In this document: positions 20,520-45,278 of the stretch, one piece after another
Position numbering within the stretch: position 1 is the first letter of the stretch
Layout of the letters: each line of letters opens with the position of its first letter
Source: Minisyncoccota bacterium
GTDB taxonomy: Bacteria; Patescibacteriota; Minisyncoccia; UBA6257; JAGOQP01
Direction: 5' to 3'
Length of the DNA: 64,000 nucleotides
NCBI GenBank assembly: GCA_041674185.1
Contig: JBAYWE010000002.1
Span: 2,233 to 66,232 of the forward strand
Made by a program: the position numbers and the translations under genes
Notes under the pieces: generated by a model
Databases searched by the model: none
What the model saw: only the letters and a program-made list of their open reading frames with translations
Told to the model about the DNA's origin: nothing

Positions 20520-20603
20520 AATTACCTCTTCATAATTTTATTCACCACTAGGTGAAAACCATGTAGGTGTGTTAGCCACACCCACACGCAGTTACGTTTA
20601 TTA

Positions 20604-21808: not shown

Positions 21809-21824
21809 TCGAAACAACTCCTCA

Positions 21825-22439: not shown

Positions 22440-22449
22440 TATTTTCTCG

Positions 22450-22935: not shown

Positions 22936-22947
22936 AAAATAATTACT

Positions 22948-23451: not shown

Positions 23452-23453
23452 CT

Positions 23454-24248: not shown

Positions 24249-24392
24249 AACATATTCTGAATTGTATTTCGTGCAATGACGCTTTGGATAATTTATTGGT
24301 AAATACATATATTTAAGATATGCATGTATTGTTCTGGTTTTTGTTAGAATCTATTGGCTCTAGTAAGAAAAGAAGAAACTTAACGGGGGCGT

Positions 24393-25163: not shown

Positions 25164-25205
25164 TATCAGGTTAGGTATATATCATTAACAAATAATGAGG
25201 AAAGC

Positions 25206-25709: not shown

Positions 25710-25719
25710 GAGTTTCTGA

Positions 25720-28749: not shown

Positions 28750-28834
28750 AATATATTATTGTGTGGCTTTGCATCAGTAATTATGTATTTATTATAGACT
28801 AAACAATACAAAGTAATCAGGATTAATATGGTGA

Positions 28835-29407
28835 TTGAAGATGGCAAAAATTAAAAAAATAAAAAGAAATCAAATATTGATTAAGAACTATGGATTATTC
28901 TGGAAAAAAGATGATGTCTTTTGGGGAAAACAAAGAGCTACAGGTAGACTATTAGGAATACTTGCTGGAGCAAAAAGATCTGACACAGTTGATTTCAGAA
29001 ATCAGGTTGGAATTTATGTGCTCTATGCTGATTATAAGATTGTTTATATAGGTCAAGCAGGAAATGGAAATGCAAAACTTTTCGCTCGTTTAAAAAATCA
29101 TTCACGTGATGATCTTGCTGGTAGATGGAATCAATTTTCATGGTTTGGTTTAAACTGGGTTACAAAGCAGCATAAATTATCAAGTGATATAGCTCGTCTT
29201 TTCCCAAAAACGCTCTCCGTGCTCAATCATATAGAAGCAATATTAATTCATGCAAGTGAACCCCCTCTTAATCGGCAAGGGGGAAGATGGGGAAAGGAAG
29301 TTCAGAGATATCTTCAGTATAGAGATGCCGAATTACTTGGAAAATCAGAAACAGAACTGTTAAAAGAAATTCACAAGAAAATAAAAAATATTGGGACAGC
29401 ATCTTGA
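28835..29407 (+). CDS. GIY-YIG nuclease domain protein
   Basis: GIYVLYADYKIVYIGQAGN followed by R...H and N residues, a GIY-x10-YIG pattern. Its stop overlaps the next start (ATGA). Confidence 0.55.
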   Translation: MKMAKIKKIKRNQILIKNYGLFWKKDDVFWGKQRATGRLLGILAGAKRSDTVDFRNQVGIYVLYADYKIVYIGQAGNGNAKLFARLKNHSRDDLAGRWNQFSWFGLNWVTKQHKLSSDIARLFPKTLSVLNHIEAILIHASEPPLNRQGGRWGKEVQRYLQYRDAELLGKSETELLKEIHKKIKNIGTAS

Positions 29408-30330
29408 AAGAAATTATAATCGACATCGGCGACAGCACTAGAAATGAATTGAGATGGTTGGCGTTTTATCGTTCTCTAGAATCCAAATCTATCAAAAAAG
29501 GTAAGCAGGTAATTATTGATTTTGAAAACGTCACGTTTATTATACCTTTCTGTTTGCTTGGTCTGTTAGCATTTATTAAATCTACATTTGAGATCACTCA
29601 AAAAAAAGTTAAGCTAATAAATATTTCTTCAGATAAAACAATATACCAATACATGGAAAGGGTAGATTTTTTTAAGTACACAAAAAAATATTGTACCATT
29701 ATTGGTGATTATACTGATGTAAAATTGTGGGAACGAGATAATGAAGCTAAAAAGGTGCATGGAATTATTGAGGTAGAAAAAGATCCAAATAAGAGTGCTA
29801 AAAAAGTAGCACTAATCATTGATGACCTACAGAACAGATATAAACATATTCTTGATTTCTTTTCTACAAATCATAAAAACGCAAACATCTTCTTTACTAT
29901 ATTATCTGAGATTACTGCCAATATTCCCGATCATAGTAATTCAAATGGATACTTATTGATACAGAGATGGGAGAGTCAAGCTAAAGGAAAAATTTTCACT
30001 AGTCTTTCTATCATTGATACAGGTATTGGAATAAGAAGAAGTCTTCAAAAACAAATAAAGACTCGTAATAGGAAGCTTCCTAAAAATCTTGATGGTGATT
30101 CTGATTTTTTAAGATATGCTTTTAGTGAAGAAGGTACTCGAAGTGGAGCGGGACTACATAGTGTTGTCCGATCTCTTCACGAATGGAACGCAAACGATAC
30201 TGCCTTATTGGTTCTTTCTGGTAGTGGCATTATGTACAAACCCCAAGGATCTTGTGACATAACATTCATCGAAGAAGAACACTACTTTCAGGGTACCCAT
30301 GCAACAATTTGGTTTTATGGAGATATTTAA
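29404..30330 (+). CDS. STAS-like N-terminal domain fused to GHKL (histidine-kinase-like) ATPase
   Basis: N box EITANIPDH, D box IIDTGIGI and G2 box SGAGLH. The N-terminal IIDFENVTFIIPFCLL segment resembles STAS. Confidence 0.6.
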   Translation: MKEIIIDIGDSTRNELRWLAFYRSLESKSIKKGKQVIIDFENVTFIIPFCLLGLLAFIKSTFEITQKKVKLINISSDKTIYQYMERVDFFKYTKKYCTIIGDYTDVKLWERDNEAKKVHGIIEVEKDPNKSAKKVALIIDDLQNRYKHILDFFSTNHKNANIFFTILSEITANIPDHSNSNGYLLIQRWESQAKGKIFTSLSIIDTGIGIRRSLQKQIKTRNRKLPKNLDGDSDFLRYAFSEEGTRSGAGLHSVVRSLHEWNANDTALLVLSGSGIMYKPQGSCDITFIEEEHYFQGTHATIWFYGDI

Positions 30331-30371
30331 ACTTGACAATCATTTCTAGAATACCTACCTTTAAGTAGAAG

Positions 30372-30974
30372 ATGCTTAAGGGTATGTTAAAAAGACAAAA
30401 CAAAATAGAGATTTATCAGGTAGCCCAAAAAGCGGGATGGAAAACTCCAAACACTTTAATTTGGAGAGAGCCCGCACAAAAAATGAGACCTGAATTTGTA
30501 AAGCGATTATATAAAGAAAACGAGACAGTGTGCGAATTAGATTTTTCAGGAATTGAGACGGCAGATGGTTCTTTTATTGATGAGTTTCTTGTGACTGAAT
30601 TAAAAAGCATGGACGCTGGTAAGGTAAGTAAAAAAGCAATTTATCTTTCCAATCTGAATGATGTTGTTTTATACAACGTCGAATTAGTCTTTACAAAAAA
30701 GCGTCCAGCTGGAGAAAAATTTTATATGATGTTTCGTAAAGCAGATGGAACTTGGGAACTGTTTTCAGAAGGAATTGAAGCATCATTAAAAGAAACATTA
30801 GAGTATATAATGATAAAAAAAGAACTAACCTCTAACGATGTTTCTAAGAAATTTAACATCAGTGTTCCGGCTGCTTCGGTAAGATTGAAAAACTTATTTG
30901 ATATGAGAATCGTAGACAGGAAAGACGAAACAACATCGACAGGAAAGGAATTTGTGTATGAATCTCTCTTTTGA
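30372..30974 (+). CDS. STAS-like (DUF4325-type) domain fused to C-terminal winged HTH
   Basis: LDFSGIETADGSFIDEFL resembles the anti-sigma-antagonist STAS core. The C-terminal region is HTH-like. Confidence 0.5.
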   Translation: MLKGMLKRQNKIEIYQVAQKAGWKTPNTLIWREPAQKMRPEFVKRLYKENETVCELDFSGIETADGSFIDEFLVTELKSMDAGKVSKKAIYLSNLNDVVLYNVELVFTKKRPAGEKFYMMFRKADGTWELFSEGIEASLKETLEYIMIKKELTSNDVSKKFNISVPAASVRLKNLFDMRIVDRKDETTSTGKEFVYESLF

Positions 30975-31099: not shown

Positions 31100-31627
31100 A
31101 TGAACGATTCAAATGAAGTAAACAAAAATCAAAATGAACAGAAAACTCATCCTGATCATTTGAAAAAAGAAATTGATGAGCTTGAACAAAAAGCTGAGAA
31201 GCTCGAAGAGGTAGCAGACCAATTTGAGAATGATGCTGAAAAACTTCATGAAGAAGCACACAAACTTGAAGAGAAGGCAGAGCAGCTTGAGAAAAAAGCA
31301 CATCAACTGGAAAAGGAAGCTGATAAACTTGAAGATAGAGCAGAAGAGCTCGAAGAAAAAGTTGAGCAGCTAGAGCATGAAGAAGAGCATAAGGAATTTA
31401 CTATTTCTGTGAATGGGAGAATGAAAACCGTTCAGGGTAAAACAATTTCGTATGATCAAATTGTTTTTCTTGCCTCTGGAAACCCAAATCCTGATCCAAA
31501 TATTATTTATACCATTAATTACAGTAAGGGTCCCAAACAAAATCCTAAGGGCTCAATGTCACAAGGCGATATTGTTAAACTAAAAGAAGGAATGATATTC
31601 AATGCTACCCCAAGTAATAAGTCTTAG
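31100..31627 (+). CDS. coiled-coil + multiubiquitin (Mub) beta-grasp domain protein
   Basis: N-terminal EKxEELE heptad-rich segment. The C-terminal ~80 aa (FTISVNGRMKTV...IVKLKEGMIFNATP) match the bacterial multiubiquitin domain pattern. Overlaps the downstream E1 gene. Confidence 0.6.
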   Translation: MNDSNEVNKNQNEQKTHPDHLKKEIDELEQKAEKLEEVADQFENDAEKLHEEAHKLEEKAEQLEKKAHQLEKEADKLEDRAEELEEKVEQLEHEEEHKEFTISVNGRMKTVQGKTISYDQIVFLASGNPNPDPNIIYTINYSKGPKQNPKGSMSQGDIVKLKEGMIFNATPSNKS

Positions 31628-32777
31628 TCCCGACCTTAAACAATTGTGGGATGAAGGTTTTGAATTAGAGGTCAAACATGGCTATCTATTAGTGCACAAT
31701 GTCCCCTATGTTACTTCCTCAAAACAAATTAAAAGTGGAACCCTCGTGTCAACACTTGATCTTGCGGGCGAAGTAACCAATAACCCTCAAACACACGTAA
31801 TCTATTTTATTGGAGAATACCCATGTCAAAAGGATGGTTCGCCCATCCTTGCGATTCAGCATCAAAACGGAGATCAGAATCTCGGGAACAAAATTGTCGT
31901 GAATTATTCGTTCTCGAATAAACCGGCGAATGGGTATCCAAACTATTATGAAAAAATAAAACGCTACTTCGAAATTATTTCGAACCACGCAAAATCACTT
32001 AATCCTGATGTTGAAGTAAAAAAATATGAGGTTCATCTTACTGAAGATGAGGAATCTGTATTTCATTACTCAGACACAAATTCGAGTAGAGCAAAGATTA
32101 ATGCGCTACAAGAAAAACTGGAATCACAAAAAATCGTTATTGTCGGTTTAGGAGGAACCGGATCGTATATTTTAGATTTGGTTGCAAAAACTCCTGTTAA
32201 AGAAATACATCTGTTTGACGGTGATGAATTTCTACAACATAATGCATTCCGTTCTCCTGGTGCACCATCACTCGAAAAACTTCGAGAGCGAAAAAAGAAA
32301 GTAGATTATTTTGCTGAGGTATACTCAAGGATGCACAAGGGAATCATTCCCCATGCAGAATTTATCAGCAGTGAAAACATCAATCAATTACTTGACAGTC
32401 ATTTTGTATTTCTTGCAATCGATGGTAGTCAGATAAAAAAGGAATTGATTGAATTTTGCATGAACAACAAAATTCCTTTTGTTGATGTGGGAATGGGTTT
32501 ACAGCTTGCAGATAATGAACTGGTAGGCATTGTGCGAGTCACCACAGGGCTACTCTCTAAAACAGATCATCTTGAAAAAAGAATTTCTTTTTCGGATGAA
32601 TCTGAAAACGCTTATGCAAGCAATATTCAAATAGCGGATTTGAATTCATTAAATGCGGCGTTGGCAGTCATCAAATGGAAAAAGATATTTTCTTACTATC
32701 AAGATTTAGGAAAGGAATGCAATAGTAACTATGCGATAAACACAGGAGAATTATTCAATGAAGACTTTGTCGTATGA
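31602..32777 (+). CDS. E2-like (UBC-fold) domain fused to E1-like ThiF/MoeB adenylyltransferase
   Basis: IVIVGLGGTGSYILD Rossmann motif of ThiF/E1. The N-terminal region has H-x9-C spacing (HVIYFIGEYPC) like UBC catalytic sites. Confidence 0.65.
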   Translation: MLPQVISLSPDLKQLWDEGFELEVKHGYLLVHNVPYVTSSKQIKSGTLVSTLDLAGEVTNNPQTHVIYFIGEYPCQKDGSPILAIQHQNGDQNLGNKIVVNYSFSNKPANGYPNYYEKIKRYFEIISNHAKSLNPDVEVKKYEVHLTEDEESVFHYSDTNSSRAKINALQEKLESQKIVIVGLGGTGSYILDLVAKTPVKEIHLFDGDEFLQHNAFRSPGAPSLEKLRERKKKVDYFAEVYSRMHKGIIPHAEFISSENINQLLDSHFVFLAIDGSQIKKELIEFCMNNKIPFVDVGMGLQLADNELVGIVRVTTGLLSKTDHLEKRISFSDESENAYASNIQIADLNSLNAALAVIKWKKIFSYYQDLGKECNSNYAINTGELFNEDFVV

Positions 32778-33120
32778 GTTTGTGGAATATATTCCAGACC
32801 AAATTGAAGAGGGTAAACTGTATGTTTCAATTCCTAATTGTGTGGCGATTCATAAATGTTGCTGTGGATGCCATACCGAAGTAGTTACTCCTCTATCCCC
32901 TGATGATTGGAGATTAATTTTTGATGGAGAATCTATTTCGTTATATCCCTCAATTGGTAATTGGCAATTTGCCTGTAAGTCCCACTACTGGATTAAGAAT
33001 AATACAGTTGAATGGGCTAAATCATGGGATGATACAATGGCTGAGAAGAATAGTAGTAAAAAATCTAATAAAAAAATGTTCTCGAAATTTTTAAAACATT
33101 TTTCTAAAAGAAAAAAATAA
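32758..33120 (+). CDS. DUF6527-like Cys/His-rich small protein
   Basis: CCCGCH...C...H cluster. This family recurs next to ThiF/multiubiquitin genes. Overlaps the E1 gene's 3' end. Confidence 0.5.
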   Translation: MKTLSYEFVEYIPDQIEEGKLYVSIPNCVAIHKCCCGCHTEVVTPLSPDDWRLIFDGESISLYPSIGNWQFACKSHYWIKNNTVEWAKSWDDTMAEKNSSKKSNKKMFSKFLKHFSKRKK

Positions 33121-33191: not shown

Positions 33192-35147
33192 TTAAATATC
33201 ATCAGTTTTTGTAGAACTTGATTGTGGCTTGTTAGATAAATCACGTAGAGTCTTTCGCCAGAAAAACACTTGATCCTTCTTAACTCTTAAATACTTCGTA
33301 GAATTCTTTTCTATTCGACCCAAAGTTGATGGATCCACTCCTAATTTCAATGCCATTTCTTTCTGGCTTAAGCCACGAATCTTTCTATAAGAGATCAGTT
33401 TTTCACCCAGTGTCTTATTAGGAAAAACTTCTGGAGTATATCCTAAAAACTCTATGATTTTGGGTATGTACTTAACCGTAGGATTACTCAGATTCTTTTC
33501 CCAGTTATAGATACTGGTTTCTTCGACACCTATAATACAGGCAACATCCTTCTGAAATAGATTTTGCTCTAGTCTCCGTTTTCTTATATGTTCCCCTAAG
33601 GATTGTGGATTTTTAGGAATATTTGATGGTTTTTGAGCTGTTAGTACCAACTTGCAGATTGGCAACGCAGGTATGAAGTTGTGTTGCCTTTCTGTCATCA
33701 ATTTCTCCCCAGCGGAAGCATACTGAAGCTGTATAGAAACCTCATTTTGTCCAATATTGATTCTTTCTGTAATAGTCTCAATAATCTTACGTTTTTCATC
33801 AGAATTAAATGTTTCCCACCGATTATATAGATCCTTCGCTTCGCGAAGTATTTCATCACTAGAAAGAAACTGAATCTTGAGAAAGTCTATTTCAGCTTGT
33901 AACTCCGGAATCTGATTCTCCATTTGAGAGTACTGCTCATCAAGCGGTTTGTAGTAGGTACCAAATCCATCTTTGGGTAACTCCCCTGCCATATGGAGTT
34001 GTACCAATTTGTCCATATCAGATTTTATCTTGGATTGTTTTTTAAGCAGGGTGGAGAGTAGTTCTTCTTTCTCTCTAATAGATTGATCGGCGGTGTTGAG
34101 GTACTGCACCATCTCAGTTGGAGAAAGTAAAAAACTTTTTAGTTGTTCATGGAAAATTGATTCCAGATCAGACGTTCCAATTTTGTTATGACATTTCTGA
34201 CAAGTGTATTTGGGTGAGTTGGATGGAACATACATCTTCGTATCACATTCACAAAATACAAACCCGGTAAATAGATGGACTGCTTTTTTAGCTGGCTTAT
34301 GATTACTTTTTTGTTGCTCATCTAAAATCGCGTTGCATTGATTCCATATATCCTCAGAAACGATTGGTTCTATTTCTATAAATACCCAATCTGAGGGGGG
34401 CTTTAATTCCCATTTTTTATTTTCTCCTAAGCTCTTGGTATAGTTTGCACGCCTTACTCCTTTTGCACTTGGGTCTTGCAGTAAACGAGTTACGGTCGTA
34501 TCACTGAACTTAGAACCATTGCGTGTTCGATACCCTGATTCATTCAGAATACGGGCAACAGTTTTTTTACGTTGATGTTCAATGAATAATTCATAGAGCA
34601 GTTTTCTGATCGGAGCTTCTTTAAGATCGGGAATTAATTTTTTATCAAGCCACTGATATCCAAAGGGTGCTTGGCCTCCTAACGGCTTTCCCATTTTTGC
34701 TCGAACTGGAACTGATGCAGCAACTCGTTCAGCAATTTCTTCCCGTTCCCACTGAGCCATCGCCGCAATCATCGTATAAAATAATCTTCCCGCCGGAGTT
34801 GAGGTATCAATCGATTCTTGTAGAGAAATAAGATCGGCATTGTACTTTCTAAATATCTCTGCAAATTCTAAAAGTTCTTTTGTGTTTCTTGCTAAGCGAG
34901 CAAGTTTAGAAAATATAATTCCTGTAATTTTTCCTGACTTGATATCTGAAAGCATCCGTTGGGTTTCGGGATGTTCCATGACTGACTTACCACTAACGGC
35001 TTCAAGCTTATATACTTCTTTTATATCCCACTCTTTTGATTCTGCATAATAACGAGCGCGTCTCTCATGGTGTTCGGGGCTTTCTCCTTTAACCTGATCT
35101 TCAGTTGAAACACGAATCCAAATACCTATTGATTTATTTTCACCCAT
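33192..35147 (-). CDS. large serine recombinase with C-terminal tandem XRE-type HTH domains
   Basis: N-terminal IGIWIRVSTEDQ resolvase catalytic domain, then recombinase/zinc-ribbon domains. The C-terminal ~130 aa carry two XRE HTHs (LGEHIRKRRLEQNLFQKDVA and LGEKLISYRKIRGLSQKEMA). Confidence 0.85.
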   Translation of the reverse strand: MGENKSIGIWIRVSTEDQVKGESPEHHERRARYYAESKEWDIKEVYKLEAVSGKSVMEHPETQRMLSDIKSGKITGIIFSKLARLARNTKELLEFAEIFRKYNADLISLQESIDTSTPAGRLFYTMIAAMAQWEREEIAERVAASVPVRAKMGKPLGGQAPFGYQWLDKKLIPDLKEAPIRKLLYELFIEHQRKKTVARILNESGYRTRNGSKFSDTTVTRLLQDPSAKGVRRANYTKSLGENKKWELKPPSDWVFIEIEPIVSEDIWNQCNAILDEQQKSNHKPAKKAVHLFTGFVFCECDTKMYVPSNSPKYTCQKCHNKIGTSDLESIFHEQLKSFLLSPTEMVQYLNTADQSIREKEELLSTLLKKQSKIKSDMDKLVQLHMAGELPKDGFGTYYKPLDEQYSQMENQIPELQAEIDFLKIQFLSSDEILREAKDLYNRWETFNSDEKRKIIETITERINIGQNEVSIQLQYASAGEKLMTERQHNFIPALPICKLVLTAQKPSNIPKNPQSLGEHIRKRRLEQNLFQKDVACIIGVEETSIYNWEKNLSNPTVKYIPKIIEFLGYTPEVFPNKTLGEKLISYRKIRGLSQKEMALKLGVDPSTLGRIEKNSTKYLRVKKDQVFFWRKTLRDLSNKPQSSSTKTDDI

Positions 35148-35250
35148 TTCATTTCCTCATAATTCATTGCAACAAAAAATCTCGTTACATAATCAAGTTA
35201 TTATTTTTTTGTAAAACAAAAAAGGAGATGTTTAGCATCCCCCTTTTTCT

Positions 35251-35478
35251 TTACGCATTGCCGACACGCTTAAAAGATGAATTTGCTTTTTCTTTATAAT
35301 GAGAAGAGGAAACAAGATTAATCTCATGGAGAGAGTAATCAGATGGAATTTTATTCTCCATTTCTGAAATAGTTTTATGTAGCAATTGATTCACCAGTCG
35401 TGTCATCGGTATGCGTTTTTGTTTTGCGATTGGATAGAGTTTGGTAATCAACTCCTCCGAAATTTTTGGACTATACAT
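35251..35478 (-). CDS. small DNA-binding protein (RHH/antitoxin-like)
   Basis: 75 aa. KISEELITKLYPIAKQKRIPMTRLVNQLL resembles ribbon-helix-helix regulators. Confidence 0.35.
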   Translation of the reverse strand: MYSPKISEELITKLYPIAKQKRIPMTRLVNQLLHKTISEMENKIPSDYSLHEINLVSSSHYKEKANSSFKRVGNA

Positions 35479-35552
35479 AATGATGGTCCCTTATTCTGTT
35501 ATCAAAGAACTATCTAAAGCTTACGAGAGATAAAAAAATAAATAAGAAGTGA

Positions 35553-36605
35553 TTATTTGTCTAAGTCAGCAAAAACGTGTGAATATTTTTCCCAGATGTT
35601 TCTACTAATATGCCATGCATGTGCATGCTTTGCATATCCATACCATGAAGCACGTGATGTTTGTATTTTCTGAGCAGTAATTTTTTTCTTTAGTAGTTGT
35701 ATTACATATTTCTTAATACGCCGTTTGCATCGTTTGATCGTCGAGGTGCGTAATCGGATATAATGAGGAAAGAGTATATATCCCAAAAAGGGAACACCCG
35801 TCGTGATAGGTGATATAAATACTTTATGGGGATGTATCGTTAAAAGTAAGCGTTCTGTTAAAAATGTCTGCATGGCATCGCGTATATCATGTAATCTTTG
35901 TTTGTCCTCAGAGCAAATTACAATATCATCCATATAGCGGATATAGTACCGACAATACAATCGTTCTTTCGCATAGTGATCAAGTTCATTGAGGTAGATA
36001 TTAGCAAATAATTGACTGGTCAGATTGCCAATAGGTATACCCTTTTTTCTTCCCCCTTTGTTTGAATCATAACTACTATCAATAATGAGTCTCAGAAGAT
36101 TGCGTATATCCACATCATCAATTACGCGAATTAACAGTGCATATAAAATTTCATGATCAATACTTTGAAAATATTTAGAAATATCTAGTTTAAGAAAATA
36201 CGCCCTGCGCGTATATCCATGACTCACCCCATACATAAATTTTTTCAATCGTCGAATAGCACGGTGTGTTCCTTTTTGTTTTCTACACACATACGAATCA
36301 TAAATGAATCGCTTTTCAAAGAGAGGTTCAATATGTGCACACACCACATGATGCACAATACGATCACTAAAGGGAGCGGCACGAATTAATCGTTTCTTAG
36401 AATCACACACGATAAATTCTCGATACGTGCCGTGATAATATGTTTTGGTAGAAAGCGCATGTAATAAGTATCCCAAATTATATTCAAGACATTGTTCAAA
36501 TCTCACTACACAGCGTTTCTGTCGTCGCAATTTTCGCGCACGACAATACGCATAATAGAGTTCAGAAAAGGAACAAAGCGATTGATACATATCATAGATA
36601 TCCAC
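35553..36605 (-). CDS. diversity-generating retroelement reverse transcriptase
   Basis: RT motifs include YMDD (RYMDDIVI). The DGR-specific IGxxxSQ signature (IPIGNLTSQLFANIYL) replaces the group II intron QGxxSP. The 350-aa size is typical of DGR RTs. Confidence 0.9.
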   Translation of the reverse strand: MDIYDMYQSLCSFSELYYAYCRARKLRRQKRCVVRFEQCLEYNLGYLLHALSTKTYYHGTYREFIVCDSKKRLIRAAPFSDRIVHHVVCAHIEPLFEKRFIYDSYVCRKQKGTHRAIRRLKKFMYGVSHGYTRRAYFLKLDISKYFQSIDHEILYALLIRVIDDVDIRNLLRLIIDSSYDSNKGGRKKGIPIGNLTSQLFANIYLNELDHYAKERLYCRYYIRYMDDIVICSEDKQRLHDIRDAMQTFLTERLLLTIHPHKVFISPITTGVPFLGYILFPHYIRLRTSTIKRCKRRIKKYVIQLLKKKITAQKIQTSRASWYGYAKHAHAWHISRNIWEKYSHVFADLDK

Positions 36606-36775
36606 GGGCGCATGGCTTTCCTCGTACAGAGAATTCTATACGAGGAAATCTTATAGCAAACATGTTGCGATAAGTATATGCGCATATATTCCCTTGCGGG
36701 ACAGAACAAAGCCAGTAGTCATCATGACACAGTTGTATATTCCGTAGAATATATATTCGGGCCACTTATAAAAAT

Positions 36776-36900
36776 AATGATGTATACCGAGCGCACCGGA
36801 ATCCAATGTTGTTGTTCGTATTGCCTGGGGTATTGTTCAGATTGAGTGTCTCTACACCAGCGTTCGTGTCATTGTTCCAATTCCCACCACGAAGGAAGCC
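36776..36900 (-). repeat. DGR template repeat (TR)
   Basis: 125-bp near-copy of 37381-37505. About 22 of the mismatches fall where TR has A on the coding (minus) strand, i.e. T on the plus strand. Confidence 0.9.
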
Positions 36901-36973
36901 CGCCTTCATTCCGGTTTTAAATGCGGCATTATCCTGCTTCTGATAATAGATAATTCATACGATCAGAAGCATA

Positions 36974-37309
36974 TTATAAAAATCGTTTGGTAAGTCCTTG
37001 CCAGATACGTCCAAGTTCATTTAGTTTTTCCGCACTTACACCATACTGTCGTATAGAAATAAAACGTAAATCTTTTGCGAGGCGCATATATAATTGCAAC
37101 GTATCAAAATGTAAGCTGATAGATGCGATGCATTCTTTTTTTGTTTTTGATATTTGAAATCGCATCATGGTTTGTAATAACGCGAGGCATTCCGATTCAA
37201 TATGTTGTCCTAATACAAATCGCTGGTTTTTAGGAAACTTGCCGACGAGCGGAAATACCCACACAAAGTATGCATACGCTTTTTGAAACAACAATAAATC
37301 TTCAATCAT
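36974..37309 (-). CDS. avd: DGR accessory variability determinant (Avd, four-helix-bundle protein)
   Basis: 111 aa. FQKAYAYFVWVFPLVGKFPKNQRFVLGQ resembles Avd / 23S-IVS four-helix-bundle proteins. Lies between the target gene and the TR. Confidence 0.8.
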   Translation of the reverse strand: MIEDLLLFQKAYAYFVWVFPLVGKFPKNQRFVLGQHIESECLALLQTMMRFQISKTKKECIASISLHFDTLQLYMRLAKDLRFISIRQYGVSAEKLNELGRIWQGLTKRFL

Positions 37310-37380
37310 ATGATGATCGTAAAAAATGCGGGGATAGATTTTTAGATAGCTAGATTGCTACGGTTCATTTCGCTATGCGA

Positions 37381-37505
37381 AATGATGACTACCGAGCGCA
37401 CCGGAACCCAACGGCGTTGCCCGTACTGCCAGGGGCACCGTACAGAAGGAGTGTCTCTACACCAGCGTGCGTGCCATCGCCCCAACCCCCACCACGAAGG
37501 AAGCC
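37381..37505 (-). repeat. DGR variable repeat (VR) at 3' end of target gene
   Basis: Matches TR except at TR-adenine positions. Encodes the C-terminal ...VYGFLRGGGWGDGTHAGVETLLLYGAPGSTGNAVGFRCAR segment. Confidence 0.9.
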
Positions 37506-38804
37506 GTACACAGTGGCATTGCTTGATCCATCAGAATAGATACGACCGATTCCTTGAGTAGCACTCCATGCGCTATTATAGGGACCAGCAGTTTGTTGAG
37601 TCATAGTTCCCCATGTGGTAATAGCAGTAAATTCTCTCCAGTTAAAACCAGGAGTGGAACCCGTAGGTTGATTCGTTCCTGTAATAGTGTCATTCGTCCA
37701 CTCCCACACATTTCCTGCTATGTCCCATAACACACTGCCATTAGAAAGCGTGTGAGTGCGGAGATGGGTGAAATCGGTATAACCGGTGCCGTATTGAGAA
37801 GAACCATCCTGAGCAGCAGATGAGTTTGAGTTGCCTCTTCCTAGGTAATTGGTACCCACAACTCCGCCATACCAGTTGATGGGTTGTTGTTGTATGTTCC
37901 AAGCGATAGTTTGCCATTCTGCATTGGTAATGAGATGTGCGCCAATAGATGCGCAATATGTTGCGGCTGTAGTTTGAGAAATGTTTGCAATCGGATAGCC
38001 AGCAGACGTAGAGGCAGGGGTAAGCGGAGAAACACAGGGAGTCGTATTATTTGCGTAGGTGTTATATCCCGTGTTGGGTGTAGTTAGAGGCGTATTACCA
38101 GAAACACACTTGGCTTCGTATTGCATGACATAGAAATCTGAGGTACCAAAGGTTGTATTACCAGGAACTTTAGCCCAACCAGAGGGAAAGACACCTTGTG
38201 CTAACGTAAGATCAGTACCAGCTTCAAAGGCAGTAGCACTAGTACCTCCATCCGCTTGTGCTCTCGGTATGTATTTAACTGATTCTGCAACAGCAGTTAC
38301 TTCATAGGTTTGAGCTGAGGGATTGGGAACATACGTATAATATAATCCCGTGGATGAGGAGTTGGTCGGATCAATAGGAAGTTTGGAAAGATTTTGAATT
38401 CCCGAAGCAGTGAAGTCTATGGGAATCCACCCAGTCCCATTGGTGAGAGTGGATGATGCAGTAGGAACACATTTATATCCATATCCCGAAGGGAGTGCGG
38501 GAAGTCCCCAACTTGCACAGGTAGCAGAGGTATCAGGCAATGAAACATACACCGTTGAAGCAGTACCTAAAGAAACCTGAGGATTTTGGGTGAGTAATAA
38601 CTGTATAGTTTTATGCATAGATGCCACATCGGTCATACGAGTAGAATCTCTTCCTTGTCTGAGAAGTTCGGTAGGATTGAGAACAATGACTACTGCGGCA
38701 GTTAAAATAGCTAAGATACCAATGACGATAAGAAGCTCAATAAGTGTAAATGCTTTCTTCAAAGGAGAAGGCTTAAAACAAAAGCCGGTGCGTTTAGTAT
38801 TCAT
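37389..38804 (-). CDS. DGR target protein: type IV pilin-like N-terminus + C-type lectin/FGE-like C-terminal domain bearing VR
   Basis: N-terminal KAFTLIELLIVIGILAILTA is a prepilin-type methylation motif. C-terminal GNVWEWT...GFRCAR is CLec/FGE-like. Confidence 0.85.
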   Translation of the reverse strand: MNTKRTGFCFKPSPLKKAFTLIELLIVIGILAILTAAVVIVLNPTELLRQGRDSTRMTDVASMHKTIQLLLTQNPQVSLGTASTVYVSLPDTSATCASWGLPALPSGYGYKCVPTASSTLTNGTGWIPIDFTASGIQNLSKLPIDPTNSSSTGLYYTYVPNPSAQTYEVTAVAESVKYIPRAQADGGTSATAFEAGTDLTLAQGVFPSGWAKVPGNTTFGTSDFYVMQYEAKCVSGNTPLTTPNTGYNTYANNTTPCVSPLTPASTSAGYPIANISQTTAATYCASIGAHLITNAEWQTIAWNIQQQPINWYGGVVGTNYLGRGNSNSSAAQDGSSQYGTGYTDFTHLRTHTLSNGSVLWDIAGNVWEWTNDTITGTNQPTGSTPGFNWREFTAITTWGTMTQQTAGPYNSAWSATQGIGRIYSDGSSNATVYGFLRGGGWGDGTHAGVETLLLYGAPGSTGNAVGFRCAR

Positions 38805-38892
38805 AATGACAACTTGGTATCAGTATACACCTTTTTGAAAATCAGTAAAAGTGGATAAATGCACTCTCAAAGTCTCGCTCGATTTCTCACGA

Positions 38893-40227
38893 TTAGCAGA
38901 AAAGTTTTCTTTGGTGAGAATCGCTTTTAGCGGTGTGAATATTTTTTGTTTGAATTTCTGTCTCAATCTGTTTTAGGTGTTTCGCATATTGCATTCGAGA
39001 ATGATCAACAATTTCATCTTTACACGAATTGAGAATATGGGGCAACGGAAGTGTAACTCCACTAAAGGGGACAGATGTAATTCCATCAATCATGAGCTTG
39101 ATACAAATGTTGTAATTAGGAAGATTGATTAGATCATTGATGTTAAACGTAGGTTCAAATTCTTTCTCTAAGAAGTGTGCATCATCAACCCCAACTCGAA
39201 AAGAAATCATTGTGCCTACATTTCCAAATACCGCATCTCGTATTTGATCGGGAAGTTGTTTTACATATTGATGTGCTAAGACTAAATTGAGTCCATACTT
39301 TCGTGCTTCGGAAAGAATATTTGCAAAGGAGAGTGTCATAAAATTATGAAACTCATCAACATAAAAATAAAACGGTTTTCTCTGATCTTCTGAAACATTC
39401 GCTCGACTCATCGCTGCTAAAAATATCATCGTCGTTATCATCGATCCTAAGAGTGAGCTAGTATCTTCACCAACTTTTCCTTTTGATAAATTCACAATGA
39501 GAATTTTTCCCTGATCCATAATCTCCCGAAATCGGAAACTATTTTTTACCTGTCCTACAATATTTCGTAAGGGAAGATTGGTGAGAAACTGACTCATCTT
39601 ATTGAGTATCGGCGCTATTGCTTCAGCACGAAAGTGAGGTGAATATTTATCAAATTCATTTGTCCAAAAGGTGCGTATTTGATCTTGTGTGCAAAATGAT
39701 AACACATGCTTTCTAAACTCAGCATTGGTTAAGAGTGTGGGAACATCGAGTAACGTTCCGTGTGGATATTCTAATAAAGTATAAAAAGAATAACGTAAAA
39801 TATGTTCAAGTCGTGGGCCCCAAAATTCTGAATATATTTTTTTGAAAACAGAAATCAATCCAGACACCACGAGATAATGAGAGCCAAGAGAAACATGAGC
39901 GAGTGGATTAAACGCAATCGGATATTCACTATCACTTGGATTAAAATAAATTACATCATTGATTCTTTCTTTGGGTATATGTGATAACAACGTTTCTGCT
40001 AAATCTCCATGCGGATCAATGATTGCTAGACCATTACCTTGATTGATATCTGCAATTGCCATTTGAGCGAGTAAACTTGATTTACCTGTTCCGGTTTTTC
40101 CCACGATATACATATGACCGCGTCGATTCTTTTCTTTGATGCCAAACTTCTTCCTGATATCTCGCCAATTAGTTAAGGCAATGGGTGTGATTGATTGTGC
40201 TTCGTGTTGTGTGTGTTCCATATGCAT
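38893..40227 (-). CDS. P-loop NTPase (DUF87/TraD-VirD4/HerA-like), short paralog
   Basis: Walker A YIVGKTGTGKSS and a DPHGDL motif, with Walker B at FYFYVDEFHNF. Shares these motifs with 25720-28749. Confidence 0.65.
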   Translation of the reverse strand: MHMEHTQHEAQSITPIALTNWRDIRKKFGIKEKNRRGHMYIVGKTGTGKSSLLAQMAIADINQGNGLAIIDPHGDLAETLLSHIPKERINDVIYFNPSDSEYPIAFNPLAHVSLGSHYLVVSGLISVFKKIYSEFWGPRLEHILRYSFYTLLEYPHGTLLDVPTLLTNAEFRKHVLSFCTQDQIRTFWTNEFDKYSPHFRAEAIAPILNKMSQFLTNLPLRNIVGQVKNSFRFREIMDQGKILIVNLSKGKVGEDTSSLLGSMITTMIFLAAMSRANVSEDQRKPFYFYVDEFHNFMTLSFANILSEARKYGLNLVLAHQYVKQLPDQIRDAVFGNVGTMISFRVGVDDAHFLEKEFEPTFNINDLINLPNYNICIKLMIDGITSVPFSGVTLPLPHILNSCKDEIVDHSRMQYAKHLKQIETEIQTKNIHTAKSDSHQRKLFC

Positions 40228-40361
40228 CGATCATAGAGAAACAATATCGGTGAGTTAAGCAGTGTAGTTTTGTTTATATCAGCATAGTTTCCCCTCTTAT
40301 GCCGATCTGATTTTTGCATGAAGATGAACATAGCTCATCACAATTAAAAAAGGAGGCATAG

Positions 40362-40715
40362 ATGCAACAAGCAAAATCAATTGAAGTGTATACCCCAAAT
40401 GGCATTCTGCTTTTTAGAGCAGTGCTCACAGACATTGCGATATCTCTTGGTTCAAAAGATGAATCGCATATCCAACATTCGTCAAAGCCCGAAGGAAGGG
40501 GCAATGGCAGATCCAACGGAGAAGCAGTCACTGATCCACAGAAGCGGCTGCTCTTCCGGCTTATCGCCACAAACTATCAGCTTGCGGGAGATCAGGTTGT
40601 AGAAAAGTTCAAAGAACTCTTTGGCGTAAAAACGATCAAAGAAGTTTCCAAATTTGACGCAAGTAAAATGATTGAACGCTTACTCGAAGAAGAACGGGAG
40701 AGTGCGCATGATTAA
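40362..40715 (+). CDS. hypothetical protein
   Basis: 117-aa ORF with no motif. Confidence 0.35.
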   Translation: MQQAKSIEVYTPNGILLFRAVLTDIAISLGSKDESHIQHSSKPEGRGNGRSNGEAVTDPQKRLLFRLIATNYQLAGDQVVEKFKELFGVKTIKEVSKFDASKMIERLLEEERESAHD

Positions 40716-41511
40716 TCATTTATCGGCAAGTCAAATTAATCTCTATCTCCAATGTGGATTGAAGTATCGATATCAGTACATCGATCTGTTGCCAAAACCA
40801 TTTCGTCCATCGGCGTTGGTATTTGGCAGTGCGCTTCATTCTACACTGGAATGGTTTCACTCACAGCGGATGCAAGGGAAGTCCATAACTCTTGAAAAAC
40901 TCTACCAGATATTCGATGCAGATTGGTATAGCCAATGTGTCGAAGCAACGATTCATTTCAAAGAAGGTGAGAAAGAAATGAATCTGTTAAATCTGGGAAG
41001 AGAAATGCTCACCATCTTTTTTCAAGAACAACATCCAAATGTAAAAGGGTGTGAAATACCTTTTACCGTTCCCTTGCGATCCCCCATTGGTGGACCTGAT
41101 TTAGAGATTGCACTCGAAGGTTACTTCGATCTGATAGAGGAAGATGGAACTATTGTGGAATACAAAACATCAGCTACCACATTAAGCTCAAGTGATATTG
41201 ATGCGCGTCTTCAATTAACAGCTTACAGTTATGCATATCAACTCCTCTATCGCAAAGCACCCAAAGGAATCCGGGTTGTGGATTTTGTGAAAGGGAAGAA
41301 ACCCAAAATGGTTGTTATAGAAACGAAGCGTGATCACAATGATCATCTGGGATTTCTGCATACCGCACACGAAGTGTTGAAAGGAATCAAAGCAAATATC
41401 TTTGTTCCGAGACAAAGCTTCATGTGCAAAGAATGTGAGTATGCAGATATATGTCCCTTAATGAAAAACAAATCATCTGTTCCCAAAGCAGAATCTCTCT
41501 ACGCAGCATAA
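40672..41511 (+). CDS. PD-(D/E)xK exonuclease, Cas4/RecB-like with C-terminal Cys cluster
   Basis: SASQINLYLQCGLKY, GYFDLIEEDGTIVEYKTS and QLTAYSYA motifs; CKECEYADIC Cys cluster. The start may be at MINHLS (40708). Confidence 0.7.
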   Translation: MNAYSKKNGRVRMINHLSASQINLYLQCGLKYRYQYIDLLPKPFRPSALVFGSALHSTLEWFHSQRMQGKSITLEKLYQIFDADWYSQCVEATIHFKEGEKEMNLLNLGREMLTIFFQEQHPNVKGCEIPFTVPLRSPIGGPDLEIALEGYFDLIEEDGTIVEYKTSATTLSSSDIDARLQLTAYSYAYQLLYRKAPKGIRVVDFVKGKKPKMVVIETKRDHNDHLGFLHTAHEVLKGIKANIFVPRQSFMCKECEYADICPLMKNKSSVPKAESLYAA

Positions 41512-41583
41512 ATAGCTTCACTAAACACATGCCCTGTTTTACACAGGGCATTCATTTAACAAAATTGATAAGGAGAATAAATC

Positions 41584-42540
41584 ATGAGTCATAATATTAA
41601 TATCGTAAATGGAGTTGCCTCAATGATGTATGTAGGAGAAACTCCCTGGCATAATCTAGGAACAAAACTCGATACACCAGCTACCGCACACGAAGCAATC
41701 ACCTCAGCGCATCTGAATTTTCAAGTTGAGAAAATGCCGTTGCGTATTGCGTTGCATAACGTGCCGGTACCAGATCATTTTGCAACAGTGAGAACAGACA
41801 CGATGCAAGTACTAGGAGTTGTTGGTTCGCGATACACGCCAATACAAAATAAAGATGCATTCACGACGTTTGATTCTTTGGTTGGTGAAGGAAGTGCAAT
41901 TTATCATACAGCCGGAGCGTTGGGAAAAGGAGAACGGATTTGGATACTCGCTAAATTACCTGAGTATATCAAAGTAAATAAGCATGATATTGTCGAACCG
42001 TTTTTATTACTCACTAATACACACGATGGCTCAGGTGCAGTAACCGTAAAGCTCACGCCGATTCGTGTTGTGTGTGAAAATACATTATCGGTTGCGTTAC
42101 ACGGAACGGAACAAGAAGTGCATATTCGGCACACCACACAAGCTGAAGAGAAATTGAAACAAGCGCATGAGATTTTGGGATTGAGTAATAAACTCTTTGA
42201 AATCTTGGGACAATACTATGTTGGTATGAGTCAGAAGATGATCAATGCTACTATGTTCTCTCAATACCTCAATGAAATATTTCCTGAACCAATTTTTACC
42301 ATGCAGAAAACTCGTGTGAAAGATATTCATGAAAAAATCATTGAACTGAGTGAAGTAGGAGTTGGGGCAGAATTAACAAGAGGAACATTATGGGGCGCGT
42401 ATAATGCGGTGACTGAATATGTAGATCACTTTCGACTATCCACTAAGAATAATTCAACACGATTAAAATCTATGTGGTATGGATCGGGAGATGCACTTAA
42501 GAAAAAAGCTTTTACGAGTGCTGTTGCAATGTTGAATTAG
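41584..42540 (+). CDS. DUF932-family phage/plasmid-related protein
   Basis: N-terminal MMYVGETPWHNLG is characteristic of the DUF932/TIGR03299 family. Confidence 0.6.
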   Translation: MSHNINIVNGVASMMYVGETPWHNLGTKLDTPATAHEAITSAHLNFQVEKMPLRIALHNVPVPDHFATVRTDTMQVLGVVGSRYTPIQNKDAFTTFDSLVGEGSAIYHTAGALGKGERIWILAKLPEYIKVNKHDIVEPFLLLTNTHDGSGAVTVKLTPIRVVCENTLSVALHGTEQEVHIRHTTQAEEKLKQAHEILGLSNKLFEILGQYYVGMSQKMINATMFSQYLNEIFPEPIFTMQKTRVKDIHEKIIELSEVGVGAELTRGTLWGAYNAVTEYVDHFRLSTKNNSTRLKSMWYGSGDALKKKAFTSAVAMLN

Positions 42541-42575
42541 AATTTCGCGGAGAGTTATGAACTCTCCGTTTTTAA
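42453..42575 (+). repeat. ~123-bp direct repeat, copy 1 (3' end of DUF932 gene plus its terminator hairpin)
   Basis: Near-identical to 43454-43578. Includes the GCGGAGAGTtatgaACTCTCCG hairpin. Confidence 0.8.
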
Positions 42576-43645: not shown

Positions 43646-44731
43646 ATGAAACAAAATTTATTTGAAATACTTGGCATCGCTTCAATCGAAAGAATTCACT
43701 CTCAAATGATGTGTTGGTTATTTTCAGACTCACCACTTACACCTATTGAAAAATCACAGTTGTTGCAAATCATCAATCCAAAGGCAAAAATATATTCAAC
43801 TTTCCAATGTCTATCGGAATATAAAAATATTGACATAATAATTCGAGCAGATTCAGATGTGTATGTAATTGAAAATAAAATTAAATCCAGTGAACATGAC
43901 AATCAGTTGAGTAAGTATCTAGCCACTATCCAAAGCGATTCATCATCCTTCTTTCAAAACACTAACAGATATTTCGCATATCTAACTCTTGTACAAGAAA
44001 AAACCAAAGCGGTGAATGAATCATGGGTTAACATTACATATCAACAAATATTTTCTAACCTAAAGAATTATAAAAGAAAAAAACCTTCTTCATTTGATGA
44101 ATTTGTATTGAATGAATACATACACACTGTAGAACGATTAGTTGTTTGTGTTGAAGACTTTATCTCCAACCATTCTCAATACGCAAACGTATTTGAAGAT
44201 GGATGGAAAACAAAGGCACAAAAATTAGAAAACTTAGAACGCTGCTCTGACAAACAGAAATATATCGCACAAAATCAGCTTGAGACAATATTACAAAGAA
44301 GTTTTCTAGGTGTTATTGCTGATAGCATGGTATTAGATAAAGATAAACCGGAAATTGACGAAACACATGGTACTGCACTATTGCAAATCATGTATTCATT
44401 TCACGAATTGACCAAGTTGAATAAATATAATATCGGAATACAATACCAGGGAGATTCAATAAAGCTGAACATTGCCTCAAAGAATTATAAAAATTCTACT
44501 ATAAAAGATATTTCAAAAAGGTTGACTGAGTGTGTTCAGATAATTGCTCGACAAAATAAATATAGAATTAATAAGGGAAAGACAAGAGAATACATATCCA
44601 TTTCCAAACAATTAGATAAAGAGATATGGGAAATGAATCTAGATGAAATAATTGCAGTCTATCAAAGGGAATATGAGCATTTTAAAAAACTCGCGAAGGA
44701 AATCATTAGGAATGGTATTTTCCCAAAATGA
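43646..44731 (+). CDS. PD-(D/E)xK nuclease superfamily protein (PDDEXK_4-like)
   Basis: N-terminal NLFEILGIASIERIHSQMMCWLF and IDIIIRADSDVYVIENKIK (D...ExK) resemble the PF14281-type nuclease family. Confidence 0.5.
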   Translation: MKQNLFEILGIASIERIHSQMMCWLFSDSPLTPIEKSQLLQIINPKAKIYSTFQCLSEYKNIDIIIRADSDVYVIENKIKSSEHDNQLSKYLATIQSDSSSFFQNTNRYFAYLTLVQEKTKAVNESWVNITYQQIFSNLKNYKRKKPSSFDEFVLNEYIHTVERLVVCVEDFISNHSQYANVFEDGWKTKAQKLENLERCSDKQKYIAQNQLETILQRSFLGVIADSMVLDKDKPEIDETHGTALLQIMYSFHELTKLNKYNIGIQYQGDSIKLNIASKNYKNSTIKDISKRLTECVQIIARQNKYRINKGKTREYISISKQLDKEIWEMNLDEIIAVYQREYEHFKKLAKEIIRNGIFPK

Positions 44732-44769
44732 TTTTTATTGTAAAATGATCTTATTAATAAAATAAACAT

Positions 44770-45072
44770 ATGTCACTTATTAAATGTTCTGAGTGTAATA
44801 GTGAAATCTCAGAAAATGCTTCATCATGTCCTCACTGTGGAAATCCCATACAAAAAGAGAGAGTTTTCGTTTCAACAGAGAAGGAAAATCCAGTCGAAAT
44901 AGAATTGACAAGTAAAAGATGGAAGAGAGTTATCCTCTTCGCATGGATCGTTATTATTTTTTCTTTATTCCTTTGTAGTATTGCTAGAGTCAGCGAATGG
45001 CTAGGATTAACAATTTTGGGTGTTTTTATTTTGATTATTGGTAAGATTGGTGCTTGGTATAGTAACCGATAA
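44770..45072 (+). CDS. zinc-ribbon membrane protein
   Basis: CSECNSEI...CPHCGN zinc ribbon followed by two TM helices. Confidence 0.45.
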   Translation: MSLIKCSECNSEISENASSCPHCGNPIQKERVFVSTEKENPVEIELTSKRWKRVILFAWIVIIFSLFLCSIARVSEWLGLTILGVFILIIGKIGAWYSNR

Positions 45073-45278
45073 ATATACAAGAAGGATTAAAACAACATCT
45101 CTTTTTTAGAAAAACTTATTGTAGTAAATTAACTTGTGTGGGATTTAGATCAAGACCATGAATGTCCTTCCCATCAGATAGGTTTACTGAGATTTGGTTT
45201 CCAACATTGTCCACATCAATGTTACTAAACAATTTAGTATTCTGCTTATTTCTATGATCCTCAGTGGGATCGCTTAAC

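Follow-up and report, generated by a model that had tools for sequence, protein, structure and literature searches.

What does a diversity-generating retroelement (DGR) rewrite in a CPR (candidate phyla radiation) bacterium, and what could its product be used for? The question is raised by positions 35,553 to 38,804 of the window, by which we mean the entire stretch of 64,000 nucleotides that was analyzed (contig JBAYWE010000002.1 of Minisyncoccota bacterium assembly GCA_041674185.1). CPR bacteria are enriched in DGRs (PMC8144416), and in their targets, usually neither a transmembrane nor another conserved domain can be recognized (PMC8144416, PMC5758913). Little is known about the functions of these targets (Wu et al. 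2018, PMC5758913). We read the locus as an intact, canonical DGR of the CPR (Patescibacteria) that rewrites the lectin-fold module of a modular type IV pilin, which is probably a surface adhesin, and we put the probability of this reading as a whole at about 0.88. The DGR mechanism itself is ordinary and of the textbook kind.

The cassette and its mutational signature

The initial annotation had proposed a complete DGR. The list of open reading frames (ORFs) and a repeat finder returned all four of its parts, namely the target gene, avd, the template repeat (TR) and the gene of the reverse transcriptase (RT), at the positions that it gave. On the minus strand, these are arranged as target with its variable repeat (VR), avd, TR, spacer and RT (Table 1).

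The RT matches Pfam RVT_1 with an E-value of 4e-23. Translation from its GTG start gives 350 amino acids (aa), and gene callers begin at M6, which gives 345 aa. Its best match among solved structures is 8ub7_A, a 328-aa RT that covers aa 13-336 of the window protein (E 4e-53). This 328-aa RT is found in entries 8ub7-8ube, where the database label is only 'Reverse transcriptase' and which we take to be the Bordetella phage bRT-Avd-RNA complexes. Group II intron RTs match with an E-value of 7e-18, and retron and defense RTs are weaker still. The motif IPIGNLTSQ (aa 190-198), YMDD (aa 224-227) and D141 align with 8ub7_A, and the arginine that aligns with R74 of that structure is retained. Both motifs named in the initial annotation, IGxxxSQ (here IGNLTSQ, aa 192-198) and YMDD, are present, and, judged by its sequence, the RT is of the DGR type. 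The Avd protein scores 66.7 bits against Pfam bAvd (E 3e-18, cut-off 40) and 78.5 bits against NCBIfam DivGenRetAVD (E 4e-22), which is 1.5 bits under the cut-off of 80.

TR and VR form a gapless direct repeat of 125 nt with 82% identity. It is the sole such pair in the window, and a sensitive blastn search of the window found no further copy. The coordinates of the initial annotation for both repeats were correct, and its approximate count of 22 differences became 23 when the repeats were aligned and the substitution classes tabulated. On the coding strand, 22 of these mismatches are located at a TR adenine (15 A>G, 4 A>T and 3 A>C), in agreement with the proposed adenine specificity, and VR never contains an adenine at a mismatch position. 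The only other mismatch, a T in TR and a G in VR, concerns the stop codon of the target, which is TAG in VR where TR has TAT. As the third and last base of this codon, it is outside the mutagenized coding part. All 21 mismatches of the coding part, which has 33 adenines in 114 nt, fall on an adenine (hypergeometric P = 8e-15), and 18 of them occupy codon positions 1-2. An A-to-N change cannot turn any of the TR codons into a stop codon. The variable codons number 18, with a theoretical repertoire of ~1.4e17 proteins, and VR makes up the last 38 codons of the target, within its C-type-lectin-fold module.

The GC-rich 3' end of VR is shared with TR, and the two repeats diverge directly after it (GT in VR, TA in TR). 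In the sister loci the same stretch reads GGTGTGTCCGG in TR as well as in VR of each locus, and a change in one copy is thus matched in the other. If the Bordetella model presented in PMC5758913 applies, this end would function in a manner similar to the initiation of mutagenic homing (IMH) sequence.

The same analogy, drawn with Bordetella phage BPP-1, supplies a plausible sequence of events. The avd-TR-spacer-RT region would be transcribed, and a complex of RT and Avd would bind the structured spacer and copy TR into cDNA. Random bases would be inserted opposite the template adenines during this synthesis, and the mutagenized cDNA would then replace VR. The 3' boundary and the TR-to-VR direction of the transfer would be set by the shared GC-rich end and by sequences that are found only downstream of VR, i.e. 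a hairpin and possibly also an array of GTAG and ATCT words.

A pilin-like scaffold with a lectin-fold module

As the initial annotation described, the target has a prepilin-type N-terminus, in which KKA precedes and FTLIELLIVIGILAILTA follows the cleavage site, and it terminates in ...GFRCAR. Pfam N_methyl matches aa 16-38 and FGE-sulfatase aa 251-409 (E 8e-13), and the score against TIGR02532, the prepilin N-terminal domain, is 25 bits with a cut-off of 16.3. The N-terminus has the form of a class III signal peptide (...LKKA followed by FTLIELLIVIGILAILTAAVVIV), and its glutamate E5 is invariant in 80 homologues. The -1 residue, which precedes F19, is Ser in 40, Ala in 21 and Gly in 19 of these homologues, and Ala in the window protein. 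With Ser, Ala and Gly all occurring at -1, the prepilin peptidase of CPR bacteria may be relaxed in its specificity. No other ORF of the FTLIE type was found in the window.

An AlphaFold2 (AF2) model of the target calculated with 80 homologues has a pLDDT of 90.5 and a pTM of 0.83. It consists of helices 21-42 and 44-73 followed by strands between residues 84 and 196 (pLDDT 86-95 for helices and strands), and of a separate C-terminal domain (205-471). The prediction thus contains the N-terminal helix of ~50 residues packed on a beta-sheet by which a pilin is recognized, and its domain boundary near residue 204 agrees with the pattern in which modules are shared among homologues. The family profile matches solved pilins through the N-terminus (7tgg with an E-value of 2.9e-8, PilA 6xxd and GspG 5wda). 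The C-terminal domain was modeled with the C-type-lectin fold that the initial annotation had assigned to it. In a fold comparison it is closest to Thermus aquaticus TaqVP, Mtd and Treponema denticola TvpA, and the structures of formylglycine-generating enzyme (FGE), EgtB and PvdO are also among its neighbors.

We take the target to be a modular type IV pilin, in which a class III signal peptide and a pilin module bear a variable lectin-fold module. Cleavage by a prepilin peptidase and display on a type IV filament, or at its tip, are the most likely fate of the protein. In that position, it would serve as a hypervariable adhesin that binds the host cell or surface needed by this bacterium with its small genome.

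Homologues and the sharing of modules

A word-indexed search gave at least 887 homologues at E ≤ 1e-5. N_methyl and/or FGE-sulfatase are found in nearly all, and both in most, of the 120 homologues listed from these matches, and all named organisms among the 120 belong to the CPR. An exhaustive search at E ≤ 1e-30, which includes partial matches to a single module, gave 1,077 clusters (50% identity) of three classes: full-length, pilin module only and lectin-fold module only. In the second class, aa 16-203 are 50-69% identical and a ConA-like lectin (Laminin_G_3) takes the place of the variable module. In the third class, the lectin-fold module ends giant proteins of Ig/PKD repeats with up to 3,761 aa. 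The ConA-like lectins on the same pilin module and the lectin-fold module of the giant proteins both support the adhesin reading. The two module types can be found side by side: at locus L037 (5797-9548), a gene for pilin plus Laminin_G_3 adjoins a cassette-less gene for pilin plus FGE-sulfatase, so that they are neighbors on the same pilin scaffold.

For the survey of loci, 80 metagenome loci were fetched with a C-terminal-only query, as the generic pilin motif FTLIELL[VI]V draws unrelated pilins. The avd gene is present in 27 of the 58 loci that have at least 700 nt downstream, and the full target-avd-TR-RT cassette in 15 of the 35 that have at least 3 kb. About 40-45% of the assessable family loci carry the cassette, and the TR/VR mismatches of those that do are overwhelmingly located at TR adenines.

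Non-coding elements

The target stop codon is followed by a hairpin (Table 1) with a DNA folding energy of -13.1 kcal/mol (z -4.8), a stability that 0 of 200 shuffled sequences reached. It is also present in L036 and in a subset of the related loci, and no hairpin was found after TR. Only 34% of DGRs have an inverted repeat of this kind downstream (PMC5758913).

The second VR-flanking element is a GTAG word and an array of ATCT words, which are located just after the hairpin. The pattern ATCT-N3-4-ATCT-N3-4-ATCT occurs once in the window where 0.17 occurrences are expected, which is not significant by itself because 17 of 100 shuffled sequences also match. The evidence comes from the homologous loci. 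In 117 fetched loci, every plus-strand match to the array directly follows either the stop codon of a target or a VR-like copy. ATCT-N3-4-ATCT is found at most 100 nt from the stop codon in 33 of 67 non-redundant loci (background 0.0047 per 100 nt), and the array is present in 21 of 29 loci that have a cassette versus 5 of 20 loci whose downstream sequence is free of one for at least 3 kb (Fisher P 0.0015). Its conserved form, (C)GTAG[CA]A-ATCT-N3-4-ATCT(-N3-4-ATCT), is ~100-fold above the background. The array is absent after TR, and it is found after several targets that have no cassette within 7 kb (L038, L056, L098, L110 and L116). We consider it a candidate for an element that serves target recognition or regulation in this DGR lineage.

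Several related loci have additional features. Small GIY-YIG ORFs are repeatedly inserted within the cassettes, either directly after the ATCT array or inside the spacer: in L119 at 2083-2337, between target and avd in L067, L072 and L096, and in L072 also in the TR-RT spacer. The array remains beside the VR stop codon where such an ORF was inserted before avd. The spacer of L067 contains a tandem repeat array (~50 nt), and in L073 and L075 an inverted copy of the ATCT array flanks an extra Avd-like ORF. In L056 (~7850-7900, 3' of the target stop codon), the GTAG/ATCT flank is the same as that of L057, and after it comes a remnant of avd with 11 codons (MLEDLIVFQKM, then a stop). No RT was found within 7 kb of it, and the locus resembles one whose cassette was lost by deletion. 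We also considered that the array is the avd promoter. This is unlikely to be the whole story, as the array keeps its place despite the GIY-YIG insertions and occurs where there is no cassette nearby.

The spacer between TR and RT has a conserved fold of its own. Three blocks are conserved in 18 related spacers: TGGCCCGAA, CTGYGCCA..CTACTG, and a hairpin enclosed by TTCCTTCTC and GGGAAAATA. The helix that joins the first two blocks covaries (GUGGC/GCCAC, UUGGC/GCCAA, AUGGC/GCCAU, GGGC/GCCC, UUUGC/GCGAA, GUGGU/ACCAC). In the minimum-energy fold of nearly all of 17 spacers this helix closes around variable hairpins, and L097 pairs differently. An alignment of whole spacers with MAFFT and RNAalifold recovered only 8 pairs because of the variable hairpins inserted in them. 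The covariation was therefore read from per-sequence folds with manual pairing. An Rfam scan of the cassette returned one chance-level match only and no family for the spacer. By analogy, the spacer is probably the region of the DGR RNA to which RT and Avd bind and where priming takes place. The spacers of L041-L112 have the same conserved blocks and covarying closing helix. A pairing of the spacer loop CUACGG with CCGTAG of the VR flank was rejected: the loop varies (UACG, UAAG, UAUG, CCAG) and the flank is a constant CGTAG.

Table 1. Positions of the features described in the text. Coordinates are those of the window unless a locus is named.
Feature	Position	Strand	Remarks
Target gene	37389..38804	-	ORF; 471 aa; modular and similar to a type IV pilin; C-type-lectin-fold module is DGR-variable
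Prepilin signal part	38751..38804	-	FTL[IV]E invariant across the 80-sequence alignment
Pilin module, aa 19 to ~203	38196..38750	-	53-residue N-terminal helix, then beta domain
C-type-lectin/FGE-like module, aa 205-471	37392..38192	-	Carries VR
VR	37381..37505	-	Coding part 37392-37505 = aa 434-471
IMH-like GC-rich 3' end of VR	37390..37406	-	TTCCGGTGCGCTCGGTA; identical in TR at 36785-36801
Hairpin	37365..37385	-	TCATTTCGC-ATA-GCGAAATGA; 9 bp, 5 nt after the target stop codon
VR-flanking element	37336..37363	-	CCGTAGCA-ATCT-AGCT-ATCT-AAAA-ATCT; GTAG word, then ATCT array
avd, accessory variability determinant	36974..37309	-	111 aa; Pfam bAvd, NCBIfam DivGenRetAVD
TR	36776..36900	-	Intergenic; 37 adenines, 11 AAY codons in the VR frame
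TR-RT spacer	36606..36775	-	170 nt; probable structured part of the DGR RNA
Spacer 5' domain	36724-36765	-	Helix GUGGC/GUCAU around hairpin AUAUUC-UACG-GAAUAU
Spacer 14-bp hairpin	36617-36648	-	Just before the RT start; seen in the computed fold
DGR reverse transcriptase	35553..36605	-	350 aa from the GTG start; Pfam RVT_1
75-aa ORF	35251-35478	-	ORF on the RT side
Serine recombinase, large	33192-35147	-	Two C-terminal HTH domains; Pfam Resolvase, Recombinase, HTH_3
TrwB/VirD4-like coupling-protein ATPase	38893-40227	-	Target-side neighbor
117-aa ORF	40362-40715	+	Target-side neighbor
PD-(D/E)XK nuclease	40672-41511	+	Target-side neighbor
DUF932/TIGR03299 protein	41584-42540	+	Target-side neighbor
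Array loci	L036 11429-11448; L063, L067, L068, L073-L075, L078, L079, others		Array 3' of target stop codons
Array loci, further	L082, L087, L096-L098, L105, L108, L110

Evidence of activity in the lineage

Evidence that this lineage of cassettes is active comes from two metagenome-assembled genomes (MAGs), which contain loci L118 and L121. Over 9,431 bp the two differ in only 19 bases, every one of which is in VR and 18 of which are at a TR adenine. Their TRs have the same sequence. Their proteins P0001 and P0122 have 0 differences in the 415 residues outside VR and 14 in the 38 residues inside it. Such a VR-only change testifies directly that mutagenic retrohoming has taken place recently in a sister cassette, and it shows that the lineage is active.

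Broader comparisons have the same pattern. In the 90%-identity cluster of the window protein, differences concentrate at AAY-templated codons. Across the family, the column entropy is 2.74 bits at codons that have a TR adenine at position 1 or 2 and 0.79 bits elsewhere. In four sister cassettes, TR has 2-13 differences per 114 nt and VR differs at 22-30 positions, and the window-specific substitutions at the 3' end are common to TR and VR of the same locus.

Alternative explanations

A number of points weigh against our reading. In place of the classical Gly, the window protein has Ala at -1, and half of the family have Ser. The window contains no gene for a prepilin peptidase, an assembly ATPase, a platform protein or other parts of pilus assembly. 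The incorporation into a filament, the location at its tip and the binding of a ligand are steps that we infer, and the roles given to the hairpin, the ATCT array and the spacer follow from their position and conservation only. For about half of the family, there is no cassette within 7 kb. The evidence from L118 and L121 does not extend to the window's own copy, and its target protein is identical in three assemblies; the consensus VR is hence stable in them.

One alternative accepts the DGR as real and differs in the role of its target. The target would be a pseudopilin or a membrane-anchored protein, as in type II secretion or Com systems, that its N-terminal helix keeps at the cell surface, or else it would be diversified to escape phages that have pili as receptors and not for the binding of new ligands. 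Beyond the missing pilus genes and the Ala or Ser at -1 in most family members, a protein of 471 aa is too bulky for a major pilin. Lectin-fold targets of DGRs with solved complexes, such as Mtd, are ligand binders, which argues for an adhesin. In addition, the class III signal, the invariant E5 and a pilin module that is common to lectin-bearing modular pilins all point to a pilin. Pilin-type proteins of this kind assemble into filaments in the systems studied (PMC8179133), and genes and transcripts of type IV pilins are reportedly common among CPR genomes (PMC9938205). As to the phages, Roux et al. consider it possible that the targets of cellular DGRs undergo diversification in a role as phage receptors (PMC8144416). 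We consider this alternative unlikely on balance, but it is the strongest competitor of the modular pilin adhesin.

It is considerably less probable that the cassette is a fossil, i.e. a formerly active DGR whose VR is now fixed. Such an explanation would fit the identical target protein in the three assemblies and the loss of the cassette in some relatives, among which L056 retains only the avd remnant. It does not sit well with the state of the cassette itself: all three ORFs are intact with their catalytic motifs conserved, all AAY codons are kept in TR, and the IMH-like end is the same in TR and VR. The VR-only change between the otherwise identical 9.4-kb stretches of the sister cassette also speaks against it.

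Genomic context

The flanks of the window are chromosomal, with murG, ftsW, mraY, scpAB and dnaX on the left and pgk, pyrD, a SpoU methylase and a sigma factor on the right. Between ~11.8 and 47 kb, they enclose a patchwork of mobile and defense genes that starts at a tRNA-Gln beside a serine recombinase. Within this region, the 8.9-kb block 33674-42568 contains the genes of the DUF932 protein, the PD-(D/E)XK nuclease, the 117-aa ORF and the coupling-protein ATPase, the DGR, the 75-aa ORF and the serine recombinase. It is 81-87% identical to a block in L036, a 770-kb contig, where the flanks are different and the recombinase and the 75-aa ORF also adjoin the cassette. At 240-1655 of L036, 10 kb from the sister block, there is a second, divergently arranged bAvd/RT pair, and this genome thus holds two DGRs.

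The initial annotation had suggested that the DGR is carried on an integrated element, a proposal that stands in part. The recombinase and the coupling ATPase do belong to an 8.9-kb module that recurs with different flanks. However, no att repeats were found, either as a repeat of the tRNA-Gln 3' end or as direct repeats at the ends of the 8.9-kb block. Furthermore, cassettes whose target is at least 90% identical to that of the window occur in plain chromosomal contexts, between murB and genes for copper resistance in L118 and L121 and upstream of ftsA-ftsZ in L119, and neither a recombinase nor a coupling protein is present beside them. Hence, this copy may lie on an integrated element, which is not, however, a trait of the cassette as such. 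What the sister cassettes share extends only from ~35586-35592 to 38750-38752 of the window. The homology begins at the first codons of the mature pilin (window 38750-38752, L118 6166, L119 617, L039 544), and the leaders upstream are unrelated, which points to an exchange of cassettes through recombination in the conserved coding sequence of the pilin N-terminus.

A stronger form of the same proposal would make the cassette the cargo of a small integrative mobilizable element, in which the hypervariable pilin picks recipient or host cells for DNA transfer. The cassette would then be the DGR analogue of the PilV tip adhesin of IncI plasmid thin pili, which is diversified by a shufflon. The shufflon of IncI plasmid R64 acts by site-specific inversion among a handful of alternative segments of PilV. 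That system also varies the C-terminal end of a pilin-like adhesin by a dedicated device beside DNA-transfer genes. It differs from the present one in that reverse transcription can give ~1e17 variants here and that the link to DNA transfer is weak. The recurrence of the 8.9-kb block in L036 would agree with the cargo explanation, as would a coupling-protein gene upstream of two more distant cassettes (L067, L072) and the abundance of mobile and defense genes in the 11.8-47 kb region. We nevertheless regard it as improbable, since the cassettes of L118, L121 and L119 do without recombinase and coupling protein, and a homologue of the latter is nearby in only 3 of 82 loci (the 80 metagenome loci, L036 and L037). 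The lack of att repeats and the single relative that was found among 2.9 million viral contigs also argue against cargo.

The surrounding region has several other features. Beside the serine recombinase, 31100-33120 (+) encodes a coiled-coil and Multi_ubiq protein, a DUF6791-ThiF (E1-like) protein and a DUF6527 protein (labeled BubE in the Pfam table). This three-gene set looks like a bacterial ubiquitination-like system of the Bub type, for which PADLOC gave weak E1-E2 matches only. An OLD-family nuclease (AAA_15 and OLD TOPRIM; PADLOC Old 6.6e-57) and a PDDEXK_4 protein (PADLOC candidate PDC-S26) at 43646-47003 suggest a defense islet beside the DGR block. In 11766-30974, the tRNA-Gln abuts a second large serine recombinase (11807-13495), which is followed by two adenine methyltransferases, an RNase H, a RuvC-like protein, a non-specific endonuclease and an HTH_36 protein. 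A 1009-aa TrwB/VirD4-like ATPase (25720-28749) is located there as well, and the region probably represents one or more integrated elements. The 415-aa protein encoded at 19272-20519 (-) has a Por_Secre_tail (type IX secretion sorting) match with an E-value of 1.3e-11, which is unexpected in Paceibacterota, and it has weak similarity to a protein of 697 aa from L036.

The database name of the target

A MAG of Candidatus Paceibacterota encodes a protein identical to the target, NCBI MFA7201485.1, under the name 'SUMF1/EgtB/PvdO family nonheme iron enzyme'. The catalytic site of FGE is a closely spaced cysteine pair. That the name is right, with a SUMF1/EgtB/PvdO-type iron or copper enzyme as the target and a fortuitous partial duplication as the repeat, would fit the FGE-sulfatase match and the FGE, EgtB and PvdO fold neighbors but can safely be dismissed, as residues 260-471 contain only C284 and C469 in place of the close pair and the region that corresponds to the FGE catalytic site is the hypervariable VR. 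The name is almost certainly a misnomer at the level of the fold.

Comparison with known systems

The cassette resembles that of Bordetella phage BPP-1 (mtd-avd-TR-brt) in its four parts and their order, in adenine-specific mutagenesis and in an RT that is homologous over nearly its whole length (E 4e-53). In both, VR is at the 3' end of the gene of a C-type-lectin-fold protein, VR and TR have a GC-rich end, and a hairpin follows VR only. In contrast to BPP-1, the DGR of the window is cellular and not phage-borne, and its target is pilin-like and not a tail-fiber protein. Its hairpin is AT-rich with a 3-nt loop, an additional GTAG/ATCT array follows VR, and the spacer RNA has its own conserved fold.

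The DGRs of CPR bacteria in two surveys ('clade 2' in Roux et al. 2021, PMC8144416; the 'CPR set' in Wu et al. 2018, PMC5758913) are similar in their host lineage, Candidatus Paceibacterota. They too are cellular, come from metagenomes of aquatic or engineered environments and have targets with an FGE-like lectin fold. What sets the window family apart is a clear prepilin signal and a pilin module. Such a module is also missing from TaqVP (5vf4), TvpA (2y3c) and Mtd (1yu0), none of which has a pilin at its N-terminus and which are only 19-23% identical to the target.

The architecture of the target is closest to that of Streptococcus sanguinis PilB, which carries a vWA module, and PilC, which carries a ConA-like lectin (PMC8179133, PMC9934059). 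In all three, a class III signal and a small pilin module bear a bulky binding module, and the likeness to PilC extends to the paralogues of the window's pilin module that also carry a ConA-like lectin. Unlike in PilB and PilC, the module grafted here is DGR-hypervariable, the -1 residue is Ser, Ala or Gly instead of Gly, and the assembly into a filament is presumed. Modular pilins have been described as tip-exposed adhesins, and the catalogue of Raynaud et al. 2021 includes 8 proteins with pilin and FGE-sulfatase modules without a link to DGRs (both PMC8179133).

The individual pieces are thus already known separately. An explicit statement that a large family of CPR DGR targets consists of modular pilins was not found in the literature searched, to which Paul et al. 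2017 did not belong. We tentatively propose a joint interpretation, which we hold to be possible rather than probable. Many CPR DGR targets may be modular type IV pilins with a tip lectin that is rewritten by the DGR, so that the pilus could serve these episymbiotic bacteria as a programmable organelle of host recognition. In the lineage of the window, the VRs may also be marked for retrohoming by a previously undescribed GTAG/ATCT cis element, in which ATCT recurs with a period of 7-8 nt and which would accompany or replace the hairpin and flag targets distant from a cassette, too.

Implications

The locus suggests a concrete role for a class of hypervariable CPR proteins. It leads to a testable hypothesis, namely that ultra-small, host-dependent bacteria are attached by hypervariable adhesins displayed on pili. 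The ATCT array and the covarying spacer RNA are defined sequences with which DGR target recognition can be studied in the absence of a GC-rich hairpin. The pilin scaffold and the activity of the sister cassette provide further handles on the open questions about the targets of CPR DGRs.

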